The notes under the pieces are model-generated. The model saw only the letters and a list, made by a program, of their open reading frames with translations. It had not been told where the DNA came from and did no database searches. From an uncultured archaeon (GTDB taxonomy: Archaea > Asgardarchaeota > Thorarchaeia > Thorarchaeales > Thorarchaeaceae): a stretch of 64,000 nt of DNA. Location: the NCBI GenBank assembly GCA_964610875.1, contig CAZSWP010000013.1, positions 1 through 64,000 of the forward strand. Reading direction: 5' to 3'. Below are positions 24,048-34,891 of the stretch, piece by piece (the first letter of the stretch is position 1; each line of letters begins with the position of its first letter). A program made the translations under genes and the position numbers.

Positions 24048-24542
24048 TCATTGTGTACCAATTTTCTTCATTAGGTCCAGAACATCTTCATCTACTACCT
24101 TCAGCTCAATCATTTTGTTTGATTCAATATCAAAGACTCTAATATTGTATTGAATTCCAGCGTCCTGATGGTCTTCTTTTATCTGGAGAAACTCAGTATG
24201 AGGTTTACCTTTGAATAATTCAAGAGAAATCTCTTCTTGGATTTCGCCGCTACGGACCTCTAAAAGTCGAGATGTTGTGAGATAGTATTTTGTTCTTCTG
24301 ATTTTAATGAAACTGTATACTGTGTATAGAATACCAATTAGCACAAAGAATACTAATCCAAATACGATAGATGCACCATAAATACTCCCTGTAAAAATGA
24401 TCACAAAAACAGATAGAAGGGGAAAGCATACTCCACAGAAAATGAACAAAAAGGGAGTACCGGCCCTTTGATGCCAAACAATCTCTTCACCTGGTTTTAG
24501 TCCATACTCTGGTGGTTCAAATCGCTCCTTTTCCACATACAT
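24048..24542 (-). CDS. Membrane protein with bacterial PH-like domain
   Basis: LKPGEEIVW, two TM helices, YYLTTSRLL. Confidence 0.65.
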   Translation of the reverse strand: MYVEKERFEPPEYGLKPGEEIVWHQRAGTPFLFIFCGVCFPLLSVFVIIFTGSIYGASIVFGLVFFVLIGILYTVYSFIKIRRTKYYLTTSRLLEVRSGEIQEEISLELFKGKPHTEFLQIKEDHQDAGIQYNIRVFDIESNKMIELKVVDEDVLDLMKKIGTQ

Positions 24543-24686
24543 AATAGTGATACCTCCACTATGGGGAGTTAAATGAGGATTTGAATCTTCTTAACAACAA
24601 AACTCCTTCGGAAAATCGAGAACCCGTTGCTTTCATTGGAAAGCTTATTTTTCTTTCATAATACATGATGGTGGAGTTTCATATAG

Positions 24687-25154
24687 TTGTCAAAATTCAA
24701 AGACCTATCAAGACCAGTTATTGCATCTTTCATAACACTACTTGGAGTTATTTTTCTCCCATATGCCTATCAACAAACATGGGGACTGGGTTCTGCGAAC
24801 CACATAATTCGATGGCCACTTTGGATTTTCCTCGATTCGTTCTATTTCTCAGGTTTCACACTAATTGAATTACAAGAGTTTCTGAGTTTTACACCAGCGT
24901 GGATCATGAGGTTTTTACTTGTCTTTTGGGTCAGCAGATATTATTCTGGTAGATCCTCACGAAGACAGACATTTGCAATAGGAATGATATCCGAGTTACC
25001 ACCTCTGTTACTTTCGCTATCTGAAATCATTGCAAACAGCATGCAGCCCCCAACATTTTCTTCTGTACTATTACCTATACCTGTACTTCTTGGCTTTGTG
25101 GTTCTACTTATCTTTCTCCTACCGTACGACCCATCCAAAGAACCTTGGAAGTGA
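24687..25154 (+). CDS. Hypothetical membrane protein
   Basis: About four hydrophobic segments. Confidence 0.6.
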   Translation: MSKFKDLSRPVIASFITLLGVIFLPYAYQQTWGLGSANHIIRWPLWIFLDSFYFSGFTLIELQEFLSFTPAWIMRFLLVFWVSRYYSGRSSRRQTFAIGMISELPPLLLSLSEIIANSMQPPTFSSVLLPIPVLLGFVVLLIFLLPYDPSKEPWK

Positions 25155-25290: not shown

Positions 25291-25407
25291 GAAAATGAGA
25301 GTTAGAAGGAAGGGTTTGCACCCATCCTTCTGAAACTATAGGTATACACTCTAGATACAGCGATGGATTACTTCCGGTCCCGCTTCTTCGAACTCCTTGC
25401 GTGAAAC
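25291..25407 (-). repeat. Copy 1 of actin 3' end plus 3'-UTR hairpin
   Basis: Minus strand 25407-25351 reads [18 protein letters not shown], followed by a GCAA-loop hairpin and T-rich tail. Confidence 0.93.
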
Positions 25408-25537
25408 CTGAATCCTTCCAAAAAAGTGCGAAAGATGAAGAGAGAAATACCTAATTTCGAGTCACTCGAATAATCTCAAGAGAATTATAAGCGGATGGTG
25501 CATTAACACAGTTAGTATATTCTGAGAGGGATATGAT

Positions 25538-25957
25538 ATGGATGTTGATGATGTTATCTCAAAGGTTCGTAGTTTCGTCAAGAAACAAGATAGTGTCATT
25601 GCAGCATATCTTTTTGGCTCACTTGCAAGAGGTACAGATAATCCAATGAGTGATATCGATATTGCATTACTACTTACAGAAACAGAAAATGTTATTCCCA
25701 GAATTAAGGAGTTCACTGTCACACTCGCAAATATCATAGACACTTCAAATTTGGACCTCATCAGCCTCAAACATGCAGACCTGGCTTTGAAATACAATGT
25801 CATTCGAGAGGGGATTCTTATCTATGAGAGTGATCCAGTTGAGAGGATTGCTTTTGAACGAAGGACAACCACAGAGTATCTGGATATGCTTCCAGTATGG
25901 AGAGAGTATGATGAACATATGAAATCCAGACTTCAGGAGTATGCAGCAAGTGATTGA
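25538..25957 (+). CDS. MNT (minimal nucleotidyltransferase) antitoxin
   Basis: YLFGSLARG, SDIDIA. Confidence 0.92.
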   Translation: MDVDDVISKVRSFVKKQDSVIAAYLFGSLARGTDNPMSDIDIALLLTETENVIPRIKEFTVTLANIIDTSNLDLISLKHADLALKYNVIREGILIYESDPVERIAFERRTTTEYLDMLPVWREYDEHMKSRLQEYAASD

Positions 25958-26363
25958 TAGTGATACAATATATTCTAGACTCTCTACTATTGAACAATGT
26001 ATGAGAGTGATTGAAAGAACAAAGGAAAAGGGACTTCAACACTACCTCAAAGACTTGGACACCAGATTTCTGACTGAAAGAGCACTACACTTAGCCATTG
26101 AAGCGAGTATAGACATTGCTAATCATATCATTTCAAATCATGGGTTTCGCAGACCAAAAGACTATGCAGATATTTTTCAGATCCTTGGTGAGGAAAAAAT
26201 CATTACTGAAGACTTAAGCGAGCGCCTAATTCATATGACAAGGTTTCGAACCAGATTAGTACATCTTTATTCAACGCTGGACAATGAGATTGTGTTCAGC
26301 ATCTTAGAGAACGAAATATCTGATATTCTTGAATTTACAGCTGTTGTTTCAGAGATGTTGTGA
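25941..26363 (+). CDS. HEPN/DUF86 RNase toxin
   Basis: ERALHLAIEASIDIANHII, FRTRLVHLY (Rx4H); overlaps the MNT gene. Confidence 0.92.
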   Translation: MQQVIDSDTIYSRLSTIEQCMRVIERTKEKGLQHYLKDLDTRFLTERALHLAIEASIDIANHIISNHGFRRPKDYADIFQILGEEKIITEDLSERLIHMTRFRTRLVHLYSTLDNEIVFSILENEISDILEFTAVVSEML

Positions 26364-26409: not shown

Positions 26410-26534
26410 AAAATGAGATTTAGAAGGAAGGGCTTGCACCCATCCTTCTGAAACTATAGGTATACGCTCTAGATACACCGGTGGATGACCTCGGGGCCAG
26501 CCTCTTCGAACTCCTTGCGTGAAACCCACATCTT
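26410..26534 (-). repeat. Copy 2 of actin 3' end plus 3'-UTR hairpin
   Basis: Minus strand 26534-26469 reads [21 protein letters not shown]. Confidence 0.94.
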
Positions 26535-27444
26535 ATCCTTTCTTCTTCAATATCACAAACCCAATGATTACTATAGCTACTATTACTATACCGATGCCAA
26601 GGATTACAATAGTATTGTCCACGAGTGGATATGCAGGGGGAACTGCAGATAGTAATTGTATCAGTTCTCCAGTCTGGGATATTGAAGCTACAAGGGTCGA
26701 TTGTATTTTGACATATTCCCAATCATTTGGATTTGCTGTTGATGACACTCTTACAGTTAGATTCGCATAAGTAAGGAACTCCCAATGCGGTTCAATCAAC
26801 ATTGAATCTGCTTGTTGATTTGTGAAAATCGAATGAACAGGACTATTCCCATAATAGAACGAATAGCCAGTTTCGTCATATGACCATAGCACGAACTTCA
26901 GAGCTGAATAGCCTTCTGAAATTGGAACTTGGAGATTAGCTAATTCCAAATCACGTTCTTCGGTTTCATTACACAGAGTGGAGATTGCATTCTTCAATGA
27001 GGCTACATAAGAATATTCAGTGATATTATCAATTGAAGTGATTGAAATAATGTTCATAATATTCGTTGAATCATATGTTAAATTATATGTACATCGAATT
27101 GTGGAGTGCATATAGTGACTTTCATTCAAAGCCATAACTATGACTTGATCACCATAAGCAGTTCGATCAATAAAAAGTAATGAATCATTATACCGACTCA
27201 TCAGATTCCTTACAGTTGTATTTGATAATAGACCTGAGTGAAACTCTAACGCTTGATTCCAAACATCTTCACCAAGAAGTAGCACTTCCTGGTCTCCAAC
27301 ATCTAGTATGAAATCGTTTGTACCGTCAGAAAGTATTGTACTTCCCCTGACCATAGTAAAACCTTCAAACGATATACATCTAGGTATTGAGTAGCCAGAT
27401 ATCATTAGAAGTAATAGAATTCCAATAATGTATGATTTCTTCAT
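26533..27444 (-). CDS. Secreted protein with C-terminal TM anchor
   Basis: Signal peptide; C-terminal hydrophobic helix followed by KKKG. Confidence 0.75.
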   Translation of the reverse strand: MKKSYIIGILLLLMISGYSIPRCISFEGFTMVRGSTILSDGTNDFILDVGDQEVLLLGEDVWNQALEFHSGLLSNTTVRNLMSRYNDSLLFIDRTAYGDQVIVMALNESHYMHSTIRCTYNLTYDSTNIMNIISITSIDNITEYSYVASLKNAISTLCNETEERDLELANLQVPISEGYSALKFVLWSYDETGYSFYYGNSPVHSIFTNQQADSMLIEPHWEFLTYANLTVRVSSTANPNDWEYVKIQSTLVASISQTGELIQLLSAVPPAYPLVDNTIVILGIGIVIVAIVIIGFVILKKKG

Positions 27445-29072: not shown

Positions 29073-29180
29073 GAAAATGAGAGTTAGAAGGAAGGGTTTG
29101 CACCCATCCTTCTGAAACTATAGGTATACGCTCTAGATACAGCGATGGATTACTTCCGGTCCCGCTTCTTCGAACTCCTT
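29073..29180 (-). repeat. Copy 3 of actin 3' end plus 3'-UTR hairpin
   Basis: Minus strand 29180-29133 reads [15 protein letters not shown]. Confidence 0.92.
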
Positions 29181-29225
29181 TGATAAAATCCATTAGAAGA
29201 GATTGAATATTTCGGAAATACAATT

Positions 29226-31976
29226 TCAGTAGTATTCTTCATTTTTGATTTCCAGATATTCTCTAGTAGAAGTTGGTAGCTGAACAATATAACTGGATGG
29301 CATGTGTTCTTTTATGATTCTCATCAATTGTGAGAATTCTAAAGGATCCATTTCTTCATCAACTTTCATTTTCAAAAACTGCAATAAAGAATCCAATAAC
29401 TGATCATCTATAAAAAAGGGTTCAATAGATAACATAATTTCGATTTCTTCATTTTTTGTTTTTGATGACTGTAGTTTTGAAATATATTCATCTCTTTTTG
29501 AAAGGATGGCATCTCGTACTTTTCGTGATTGATAGAGATGGGGAAAAGATACCAATTGCTTTATTGGGTTGGTATGCTTTATTGGTTTGAGAATCAAACT
29601 CTCAACATTGTCGATTACCCTCTTATCTCTACTAGCATGTTTTAAGGAACATTCAAAGGATTTGTGAATAATCCAATCAGTGGCATCAACAACGACATTT
29701 TCAAATACGATTTTCTTGAATATTTCTCTAGAATGTCCCGAGAAATGAAATCTATGGTCTATTGTCCCTATTACATCCAATGGGTTTTCTGAGAGTATTA
29801 TTTTTTCAAAGAGTGCCTTCAGGATGGAGGGATGTTCAGTAAGAATTCTAAATTTCGAGATTGTTTCTACCACTCGCCAAAAGTTATCCTCATCTGTAAA
29901 CATAGCAATGATATCTTCTATTCTTTCTACAATAATCTCTATAAGCTCGTATTTTCTCTGAAATTTGGGAATAAACGATATTGCATTTAAAATGGATAAA
30001 TCAATATGACTGTTTTTCAAATACTTAATGAAAACCATATTTAGAAGGTTAACTGTTGTGTTATCTTTTGTTCTAACAAGATTCTCTATTTCATATGTCT
30101 TGATTCGTTCCGAATTATCTCGAAGTGAAAGAGAAATTTCAAGTAGTCTTTTGCTAATGGTAGGTTCATTTTGAGTAGTAATCAATCTTTCTGGACGGTG
30201 AGATGTATTTTTAGTTATTTCTTCCAATTGTTTAGCTATAACTTTACCAGCTTGAAGATGGTCTTTCAAATAGTCACACGCCCTAATTTGCCGCTCAATT
30301 GAATCAAGCGTATACCTCTCTCGAATTAATTTAATTTTAGATGGGAATTGCTCAATGAAGCCATCAATGCGATTCATTAGCCATTGGTTATCATAGAAGT
30401 CTGGTACAGAAACTACTTCTCTGATAAATGAGATGAACTCAACAATATTATCTTTATATACAACTTGCTCTTTTTTTAGTTTCAGTTTGAGAACCAATTC
30501 TCTACGAAAACATACATGGCGCATTACCTGACATATTTTGGATAATGTCCAGTACATCGGATATTTCCTGAAGGAATTAACAACCAAACTGACTACATCC
30601 TCCTTTTTTTCATTGGGAGCAACAGAATAGAGAATATTCGCATATTTTGCTAGGCCCCTCCCTTCATGATACCTATCAATCTGGCACTTGAGTTTTTCAT
30701 AACTTTTTTTTGATTCAGAAAGTATTCCTATATAATATGGGCAAGCATTTACATATTCAAGTAAAGCCTCAGGGTTGACAGAAGTTGTTATGGCTTTAAG
30801 TAACTCATCTTGAGTCAATGTTGCGGATGTGTTTCCTGGAATCAAATGAAGAGCAGTTTCAACAATCATTTGCTCGAAGCTGCTACTAGGAAGATGTCTC
30901 CTATTAGGAGAGGCTTTCGAATCTCTTTTTGTAGCATAAAAAAAGCCATCTAGGAAATTAGATAATCCAGCTGCTGTAATAACATCAGGTCCTTCGGACT
31001 GTTCTGCAACTTTCCATAGAAGCAGAATAGATGCGGCACGTCTTTGCCAGATTTTACTTTTCAGTCCATTTCTAATTCTTTGTATCATAGACGGATTCTC
31101 TATGACCATCTGAACAATCTCATGTATAGCTTCATCTGTAGGCTCATATTTTTCACTATTATCTGTAAGATCAAATCCATACAATGTAAATTTCTTTGCA
31201 ATCCATCTGAGAATTCGCCACACTGGAATGTCTATTTTATGTTTGATTGCATAGAGAATTAGTTCTGCGTGAATCTTATTCGAATTGACTATCTCGATTA
31301 CTGCATTTCTGATTTTGGGACTAACATAATACTGGGCTAGATAACAAGCGCCAGCTGATATTTCTGTATCAGAGTGTTTTATGCAGCGAAGCAATTCATC
31401 TGGACTAATTGGTATCGACAGATTGTCAACCCATTTTTTCATAGCCACATTATTTCCATGGAACGGGTCTCTACAACCATATCTCATTATTTCTTCTATA
31501 GCTTTGCTAGTATTACGTTTTGATTTTAGTAAGATCACCTCTGAACACAAATCATAGTCATCACCCATATTTGACACTGAGTAGTAATCACCTGGATCCT
31601 CACCTAAGCCTTCTAAAACTGCAATGGTTCCTTCGTTCAGTCCACCCCATTCTTTGTATAGATAGTTTTGTAATTTAGGAATCACTTCTTTACCCATAGA
31701 TATTATTCCATTTACAATTCTATCATCAACACAGCTGCCACAATCCCACTTTCTATGAATCCAGTACAACTCTTTCACAAGTTTGTCAAAGGCATCTAAT
31801 CCTTGAAGTTGAACAATAGCTTCTATAGCAAGTTCTACCAAGTCACTATCTCCTGCCCATGGACTAACCCAATCCAGAAGAGATAGAAAACTCTCCATTT
31901 TCGAAACGATTTCAGTTCTATTATATCTGATTGCTATTCTGACAGCAGACTCCAAAGCTTCATAGCTTGTATCCAC
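29226..31976 (-). CDS. Large alpha-helical (HEAT/ARM-like) hypothetical protein
   Basis: 916-aa AT-rich ORF; HEAT-like segments GLKSKIWQRRAASILLL and CIKHSDTEISAGACYL. Confidence 0.6.
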   Translation of the reverse strand: MDTSYEALESAVRIAIRYNRTEIVSKMESFLSLLDWVSPWAGDSDLVELAIEAIVQLQGLDAFDKLVKELYWIHRKWDCGSCVDDRIVNGIISMGKEVIPKLQNYLYKEWGGLNEGTIAVLEGLGEDPGDYYSVSNMGDDYDLCSEVILLKSKRNTSKAIEEIMRYGCRDPFHGNNVAMKKWVDNLSIPISPDELLRCIKHSDTEISAGACYLAQYYVSPKIRNAVIEIVNSNKIHAELILYAIKHKIDIPVWRILRWIAKKFTLYGFDLTDNSEKYEPTDEAIHEIVQMVIENPSMIQRIRNGLKSKIWQRRAASILLLWKVAEQSEGPDVITAAGLSNFLDGFFYATKRDSKASPNRRHLPSSSFEQMIVETALHLIPGNTSATLTQDELLKAITTSVNPEALLEYVNACPYYIGILSESKKSYEKLKCQIDRYHEGRGLAKYANILYSVAPNEKKEDVVSLVVNSFRKYPMYWTLSKICQVMRHVCFRRELVLKLKLKKEQVVYKDNIVEFISFIREVVSVPDFYDNQWLMNRIDGFIEQFPSKIKLIRERYTLDSIERQIRACDYLKDHLQAGKVIAKQLEEITKNTSHRPERLITTQNEPTISKRLLEISLSLRDNSERIKTYEIENLVRTKDNTTVNLLNMVFIKYLKNSHIDLSILNAISFIPKFQRKYELIEIIVERIEDIIAMFTDEDNFWRVVETISKFRILTEHPSILKALFEKIILSENPLDVIGTIDHRFHFSGHSREIFKKIVFENVVVDATDWIIHKSFECSLKHASRDKRVIDNVESLILKPIKHTNPIKQLVSFPHLYQSRKVRDAILSKRDEYISKLQSSKTKNEEIEIMLSIEPFFIDDQLLDSLLQFLKMKVDEEMDPLEFSQLMRIIKEHMPSSYIVQLPTSTREYLEIKNEEYY

Positions 31977-33348: not shown

Positions 33349-33721
33349 GTTCGTCGATAGCTCCTAGACTATACAGGAATCTCCCAGTCAGCAGTGAACC
33401 GATGTCCCTGTGCAATCAGGTTCCGTAACCACTCTAATAAGAACCGATTAAGTGTAGACTTGTTCTTGATGTCAACTGTGTCGGGCGTAGGATAGGAATC
33501 GCCAAGCTGGAGTGCCTTGGCAGACTATTTAAGCCCCACACGAATTACTAAGTAATAAAGAGGTCTCACTGCACGGTCATGTGAATCGCCAAGTTCTATG
33601 CGCTGTGTGGTGGGGCCACCTTCCAGCTATCCATAGAATACTCTTTCTTTTCAAAAAGGCAATGAGAAAAATAGATTGTGAAGGTGAGCCTTGCAGCTCT
33701 ACCTTCTAAACTAACAACCCG

Positions 33722-34891
33722 TTAGATACATCGGTGAATTACTTCAGGTCCAGCTTCCTCAAACTCTTTCCGAGATACCCACATTTACCACGCAGCAACG
33801 GAAATCGGTGCCGCTTTTTGGAACGTTTTCAGCGAAGCTAGAATGCTTCCGCCAATCCAGACAGAGTATTGTCTCTCGGGTGGAGCGATGATGCGTACCT
33901 CGATGTTCTCTGGGACTAGTTCGGTGATCTCCTTATGGAGTCGTTCCTTGAGTCCTGGGAACATGGTTGAACCGCCTGATAGTACAATGTTGGCGTACAG
34001 GTCACGTCGCAAGTCTACATCGCAAGCCTTGATCGACTCGACAATGTGTTCATCCAGTGGGATTGAGTCTAGACCTATTGCGCTTGGGTTGAAGAACAGC
34101 TCGGGTGCTTGGAACCTCTCTGCACCAACAGTGATTACTTCACCGTCTGGTAGCATGTAGGGTTTGTCAACACCAGCCTTGTCGGCCACTGTCCTCTCGC
34201 GCTCTGGGTCAAGAGCAACGTAACAGAGTTTCTCTTTTACATCACGGACAATCTCTTTCTCTGCACCGCTCACGAATGAGTAACCTCTCTGTCTGAGAAG
34301 TCTGCGCAGGTACTCGGTGATGTCACGACCAGCAAGGTCGATTCGTTTGATTGCGTGGTTGATTGAGAAACCTTCGTACACAGGTACAATGTGTGTGACA
34401 CCGTCACCAGAGTCGATGACGAGACCTGTGGTTCTTCCGGATGCGTATAGTGATAGCACAGCCTGTGTTGCGACATAGACGGCAGGTATGCCGAAGTTGT
34501 CGAACATGACAGATGCCATGCGTTCACGATTCTCTCTTGGGTTGTATGGTGCTTCAGTGAGAAGCACGGGGTTCTCGCTGGGATCAACTTTCAAGTCGTT
34601 GTAGAAAGTGTAACTCCAGATTTTTTCGATTGCGTCCCAGTCGTCAATTACACCGTGTGTAATTGGGTAGACGAGTCTGAGCACACCACGGAGGTTGATT
34701 GCCTCTTCACCAATGTAGTAATCCCTTGTGTAGTGATCGACGTCCGTCATAATGGACTCGTATCGTGGATATCCAATTAGTGTAGGCCATACACTTCGTG
34801 GCTGATCTTCACCAGCGTAACCGTTCTTACTCAGGCCAGTACCATTGTCAATGACAATTGGTTTACTGCCCATGTAATCTTCCTCAGCCAT
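33722..34891 (-). CDS. Actin (lokiactin-like), two exons 34891-33816 and 33785-33722; 379 aa spliced
   Basis: [62 protein letters not shown]; C-terminus [20 protein letters not shown] resumes in frame after a 30-nt insert. Confidence 0.96.
33786..33815 (-). other. Putative 30-nt BHB intron in actin mRNA
   Basis: Intron AGCGGCACCGAUUUCCGUUGCUGCGUGGUA; bulges AA|A and UA|A, central helix CCAA/GUGG, inner stem GCGGCA/UGCUGC; removal gives TTC CAA AAA ATG TGG. Confidence 0.82.

Follow-up and report, generated by a model that had tools for sequence, protein, structure and literature searches.

Which actin does an archaeon make if its only actin gene carries a stop codon shortly before the end of the reading frame? 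This question is raised by the genome of an uncultured member of the Thorarchaeaceae (Asgardarchaeota), of which we analysed positions 1 to 64,000 of contig CAZSWP010000013.1 (assembly GCA_964610875.1), hereafter called the window. In the actin gene on the minus strand of this 64,000-nucleotide (nt) window, 30 nt with an in-frame stop stand between the last 20 codons and the rest of the gene. We propose that this insert (33786-33815) is very probably an intron of the bulge-helix-bulge (BHB) or tRNA type in the actin pre-mRNA, a reading that is derived from sequence comparison.

The interrupted actin gene and its predicted splicing

The open reading frame (ORF) that starts the gene (34891..33785, minus strand) codes for 368 amino acids and is stopped early by a TAA inside the insert; it matches positions 5-390 of the Pfam Actin profile (E 1.4e-122). 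In the same frame there follow 20 further codons and a stop (33784..33722), which correspond to the conserved actin C-terminus and match profile positions 390-407 (E 0.0016). Since both pieces are contiguous in the profile, the 30 nt separate two adjoining parts of actin, and the broken frame noticed in the original prediction, which had been made from the letters of the window, is thereby confirmed. The gene is the single actin match in the whole 3.75-Mb genome. A DNA contig of run X1, the likely source run, spans 33500-33818 with zero differences from the window, which excludes that the insert arose as an assembly error. The elements of the predicted splicing substrate are the following (arrows mark predicted cuts, and in protein or codon strings the place of an insert):

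33816..34891, minus strand: actin exon 1, with start codon 34891..34889; its last 2 nt are the first two bases of a Lys codon
33786..33815, minus strand: candidate BHB-type intron of 30 nt, built from 1 nt, a hairpin of 23 nt, 4 nt that form one strand of the central helix, and 2 nt; with in-frame TAA
33722..33785, minus strand: actin exon 2, made up of base 3 of the Lys codon, then MWVS...HRCI (20 codons), then the stop 33724..33722
33818..33821, minus strand: 5' strand CCAA of the central helix H, within exon 1; its partner is GUGG (33788..33791), with an A.G mismatch 33818/33791
33815..33817, minus strand: 5' bulge AA↓A; cleavage predicted between 33816 and 33815
33792..33814, minus strand: intron hairpin h', closed by a 6-base-pair (bp) stem GCGGCA/UGCUGC
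33785..33787, minus strand: 3' bulge UA↓A; cleavage predicted between 33786 and 33785; the same bases are the TAA that ends the unspliced ORF
33781..33826, minus strand: whole motif, including the outer exon-exon helix of ACGUU (33826..33822) with AAUGU (33785..33781), as in the minimum free energy structure of RNAfold

According to our proposal, CCAA of exon 1 would pair with the 3' end of the intron as a 4-bp helix, with the 23-nt hairpin stacked on top and the splice sites exposed in short bulges on opposite strands. A heteromeric EndA would cut both bulges behind their second base (AA↓A and UA↓A), and RtcB would ligate the two halves, thereby rebuilding the Lys codon and yielding an actin of 379 amino acids that ends with ...TFQKMWVS...HRCI. 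The spliced transcript is predicted to read ...UUCCAAAA joined to AAUGUGGGUAUC. From unspliced mRNA, a 368-amino-acid actin without the conserved C-terminus would be made.

Evidence from related actins

The family is represented by 86 genomes, of which 75 have an actin gene. An alignment, which had been suggested as a check for a precise 10-codon insert, gave exactly such a picture: six of the 75 (G000, G012, G014, G019, G022 and G023) carry a stop-containing insert of 30 nt at the identical codon, the remaining ones match across the junction without an insert, and every intronless junction actually read is FQKMW. One intron allele occurs in identical form in three independent records, one of them a Joint Genome Institute (JGI) metagenome contig. 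Wider pattern scans for any insert of 16-46 nt at the actin site revealed no alleles beyond those already known. The actin nucleotide tree follows the genera, and in three genera intron alleles are sister to intronless ones (84-94% identity between them); the same insert is present across six genera. Such a distribution would need either many precise losses or several gains.

The alleles also constrain the position of the cuts. In five of them exon 1 ends with CA(G/A)AA followed by U, and the Lys codon is restored solely by the cut AA↓U...NN↓A, neighbouring registers leading to Arg, Asn or a stop; it is the cut after the second bulge base that restores the junction FQK↓MW. For the window's own allele the original prediction had named three registers that yield FQKMW, which holds true, and its intron coordinates agree exactly with the register AA↓A...UA↓A. 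The same comparison bears on two explanations at the level of translation. Stop-codon readthrough or recoding would produce an actin with a 10-residue insertion, and indeed the 30 nt keep the frame and the insert peptides look similar between alleles. However, the in-frame stops differ (UAA in four inserts, UGA in two) and in G022 the stop is shifted one codon earlier, the likeness of the peptides follows from conserved, covarying RNA helices, and sister inserts, described below, shift the frame (34 nt in the actin of G026, 31-32 nt at the second hutU site). We thus consider readthrough very improbable. We give hardly any credence to translational bypassing of the type known from phage T4 gene 60, in which the ribosome would hop over the 30 nt: in its favour, the gap contains a hairpin and ends with a stop codon, but a matching pair of take-off and landing codons is absent from all six alleles, five of which have AAU (Asn) instead of Lys before the gap, a ribosome landing on the only AAU or AAA further downstream would read MWVS in the wrong frame, and the stop is found at the far end of the gap and not beside the take-off codon. 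A self-splicing intron of group I or group II was ruled out, as the ribozyme core needs hundreds of nucleotides and the insert has 30.

RNAfold, applied to five alleles, and RNAalifold, applied to the alignment, agree on one structure. Outermost is an exon-exon helix; inward of it follow a single unpaired U, a helix of 4 bp in which the end of exon 1 pairs with the insert's 3' end, a bulge of 3 nt and, innermost, a hairpin of 9 bp whose loop has 5 nt. The z-scores of these five folds range from -1.4 to -5.5, and 88.7% of the cells are paired in this structure, compared with 36-49% if the partners are slid against each other. Six pairs are changed on both sides (two of the four in helix H and four of the nine in the hairpin). 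None of 500 shuffles equalled these values, neither for the pairing nor for the two-sided changes (n=6 sequences). For example, four alleles have CCAG/CUGG as their central helix and G022 has UCAA/UUGA, with two double changes that are synonymous on the exon side, while the G019 hairpin has a different sequence with its pairing kept. In the relatives the central helix is fully paired, and the 5' bulge is canonical in those five alleles.

Several observations weigh against our proposal. The 3' splice site of the five other alleles is a 7-nt loop opposite 1 nt and not a strict 3-nt bulge; the motif is a relaxed (HBh'-like) rather than a strict BHB. The outer helix is paired somewhat better in intron-bearing than in intronless alleles (9.7/12 vs 7.2/12), a modest gain, and is partly fixed by coding, and six related sequences are a small sample for covariation. 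Of the six, the allele in the window has the weakest motif: the mismatch in its central helix (CCAA/GUGG) and the imperfect outer helix, both given as caveats in the original prediction, are real, only three of the four central pairs form, and the A.G mismatch makes the 5' bulge effectively 4 nt long. Its 86-nt stretch folds no better than shuffled sequences (z +0.5). The 3' side of this allele, with ACGUU/AAUGU beside a bulge of 2-3 nt, is nearer to the canonical form. With a loose BHB descriptor, the genome yields 57,612 matches; the window's motif on its own is not beyond chance, so that its significance rests on the comparison with the relatives. Finally, the RNA contigs that cover the region (X7, X9 and X14) are 5-15% diverged and have the AAG-ATG junction typical of intronless relatives. 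Since they stem from such relatives, they are silent on the splicing of this actin.

The degraded motif and the lack of a spliced transcript of this organism among these RNA contigs are also what could be put forward for a retained insert, with a truncated actin of 368 amino acids or a decaying gene, and the 20 downstream codons as a relic. We regard this as improbable. Exon 2 is intact in the six species, where 16 of its 20 codons vary, 15 of them synonymously only, and the lone replacement (A/Q) is found in intronless actins too. Between the window's exon 2 and that of the nearest intron-bearing relative there are ~10 synonymous and 0 replacement differences. This pattern indicates that exon 2 is under purifying selection and is translated in the actin frame in these lineages; with a stop in the insert, its translation means that the insert must be removed. 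Retention is further opposed by the finding that the gene is the sole actin gene of the genome and by the persistence of the insert in six genera. We infer that cleavage and ligation of the actin pre-mRNA do occur, and efficiently so even on the somewhat degraded motif of the window.

The enzymes that such a reaction would demand are encoded in the genome, namely two EndA-domain genes (PF01974; 102.8 and 70.8 bits) and one RtcB gene (PF01139; 588 bits). The two EndA ORFs are located at L042:1474-2049 and L043:1447-2070 (minus strand). By our reading of the sequences, one EndA paralogue seems to keep the context of the catalytic Tyr, His and Lys residues and the other does not. The EndA of Asgard archaea was reported to belong to type (alpha-beta)2, with an L1 loop, and to cut relaxed motifs (PMC5829648), and the pair found here fits this enzyme. 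ARAGORN predicted 35 tRNAs, with introns in 20. With the cut placed behind base 2 of both bulges, this genome's intron-bearing genes for tRNA-Pro, Gln, Met and Asp yield intact tRNAs. The interpretation as a BHB intron, advanced in the original prediction for the window's allele, thus gains support from same-site inserts, compensatory changes, the register, selection on exon 2, the enzymes and the cut rule of the tRNAs.

Surroundings of the actin gene and further inserts in mRNAs

A fragment consisting of actin exon 2 and a tail of ~60 nt from the 3' untranslated region (UTR), located at 33600-33785 in the actin gene itself, has three further copies downstream, arranged as direct repeats and each just behind another gene:

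25295-25408, minus strand: copy of the actin 3' end
26410-26535, minus strand: copy of the actin 3' end
29085-29181, minus strand: copy of the actin 3' end

Together with the actin gene's own 3' end, these repeats enclose inserted cassettes of ~8.4 kb in all; what lies on the far side (genes at 24048-25154) directly adjoins actin in the relative G001. The actin 3' end thus looks like an integration hot spot. A causal link between the repeats and the intron is speculative. One could imagine that the 30 nt originated as a recombination footprint at the attachment site of a mobile element and survived because they are spliceable, which would concern the origin of the insert and not its mechanism. 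In favour of such a footprint are the repeats that bound the variable cassettes and start 0-21 nt downstream of the intron site. We nevertheless consider this origin unlikely, as cassette arrays follow intronless actins too (G008, G020 and G017), the flanks of the repeat copies are unlike the intron, and a Pfam scan of the window's own cassettes detected neither a homing endonuclease nor an integrase, for which reason a cassette of that kind behind actin was rejected. The first downstream ORFs of the other five intron genomes, judged by eye on their translations and without a Pfam scan, have no gene in common.

The window's intron has no other copy in its genome. In the 86 genomes, the hairpin sequence of the relatives (with at most 3 mismatches) was found in actin and only once elsewhere, as a chance match on the opposite strand of an unrelated ORF. 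This again speaks against a footprint, and a mobile intron family or multi-copy element was rejected, as no genuine copy of the hairpin exists in the family apart from those in actin.

Some further features of this region were recorded. After the actin stop (33640-33720, minus strand) there is a hairpin of ~11 bp (GAAGG...GCAA...CCTTC type), which the actin 3' UTRs of the relatives and every repeat copy have kept; its role could be that of a terminator, or of a site for recombination or protein binding. A toxin-antitoxin pair (25538-26363, plus strand) of a nucleotidyltransferase (PF18765) and a HepT-like RNase (PF01934) makes up a 1.1-kb cassette between two of the repeats. The cassette behind the actin gene of G023 resembles a different small two-gene toxin-antitoxin pair, as far as translated ORFs without a Pfam scan can tell. 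An ORF of 916 amino acids (29226-31976, minus strand) without a Pfam match lies in the largest cassette.

Inserts of like architecture were also found in other mRNAs. The window contains one in the urocanase gene hutU:

53723..53752, plus strand: second candidate mRNA intron, 30 nt with a stop, splitting YGQ↓MTAG of hutU; layout as in actin

Seven relatives have an insert at this YGQ↓MTAG site, and in five of these seven the central helix is ACGG/CCGU or AUGG/CCAU, tracking whether Tyr is encoded by UAC or by UAU. In hutU there is a second site, YGE↓SGQ, at which at least five other genomes (L083, L085, L086, L088 and L089 in the relatives G068, G018, G101, G002 and G053) have frame-shifting inserts of 31-32 nt, and a frame-restoring BHB could be fitted by hand to two of them. 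In another family of the phylum, the actin of G026, a 1.4-Mb single contig, has an insert of 34 nt at YS↓VWIGG (L090/L092; G026:C1:535450-535850) with a canonical motif (GUAC, UC↓A, 27-nt hairpin, GUAC, AA↓A); the congeneric G037 lacks this insert. A genome-wide search for mRNA introns, which combined a BHB descriptor with ORF-joining and codon-usage filters, recovered hutU, but its candidates were no more numerous than those of shifted-register controls (for example 56 vs 52 and 64), and it gives no usable total.

From these inserts one might tentatively suppose that tRNA-type splicing of mRNA is a regular part of Asgard gene expression, with uniform micro-introns of ~30 nt in several conserved genes, gained and lost between congeneric species, and with a supply of full-length actin that, given the stop in the actin intron, would hinge on the activity of EndA and RtcB and could be tuned by it. 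We regard this generalisation as possible, if rather doubtful; the sites that it counts are two independent ones in actin, in two families, and two in hutU. As a separate observation, actin-like paralogues of other families (G027:C7:4011-5174 and G038:C97:532-1704) are matched by the query as two permuted pieces in long open frames.

Significance and comparison with known systems

The interrupted gene encodes actin, a hallmark cytoskeletal protein common with eukaryotes, and belongs to their closest archaeal relatives. If our proposal is correct, the expression of an important gene would hang on the tRNA-splicing machinery. Automatic annotation truncates or splits such genes, and the actin described here would be called as a protein of 368 amino acids with its C-terminus missing. 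Genera with both intron-bearing and intronless species offer a natural system for studying gain and loss of protein-spliced introns in coding sequence. There is no direct bearing on spliceosomal introns, as the mechanism differs.

The closest counterpart within the genome itself is the intron of tRNA-Pro(GGG), which has the same 30-nt layout (1+23+4+2), cuts after the second bulge base and presumably the same enzymes, EndA and RtcB. In the tRNA introns, however, the exon part of the motif is a tRNA stem, whereas in actin it is coding sequence, so that the helices have to be compatible with codon constraints; the 3' site of actin is moreover relaxed.

Splicing of HAC1 and XBP1 mRNA is a spliceosome-independent process as well, in which a short intron (26 nt in XBP1) is cut out by Ire1, the halves are joined by a ligase of the tRNA type (tRNA ligase or RtcB) and the C-terminus of the protein is altered. 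Ire1, however, reads paired stem-loops and not a BHB as proposed here, and its reaction is a regulated stress switch.

Among archaeal mRNAs, a BHB intron is known from Crenarchaeota, in the pre-mRNA for the pseudouridine synthase Cbf5 (gene cbf5; Watanabe 2002; Yoshinari 2006; Yokobori 2009, PMC2738675). In our literature search, cbf5 was the sole archaeal protein-coding mRNA with an experimentally shown BHB intron (PMC2738675), and the recent work on Asgard introns that we found deals with tRNAs only. While splicing of cbf5 was shown by experiment, that of actin is proposed from comparison. The two cases differ in the host gene, which here encodes a eukaryotic signature protein, and in the phylum (Asgard, Thor group); in addition, the actin insert has a uniform length of 30 nt with an in-frame stop, is polymorphic within genera and is accompanied by further candidate mRNA introns (hutU) in the same genomes. 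What they have in common is a short, protein-free intron in a protein gene, a BHB motif at the junctions (relaxed in actin), the link to a hetero-oligomeric EndA and a patchy occurrence among close relatives, and on these grounds the actin insert is classed as a further putative case of a cbf5-type mRNA intron.
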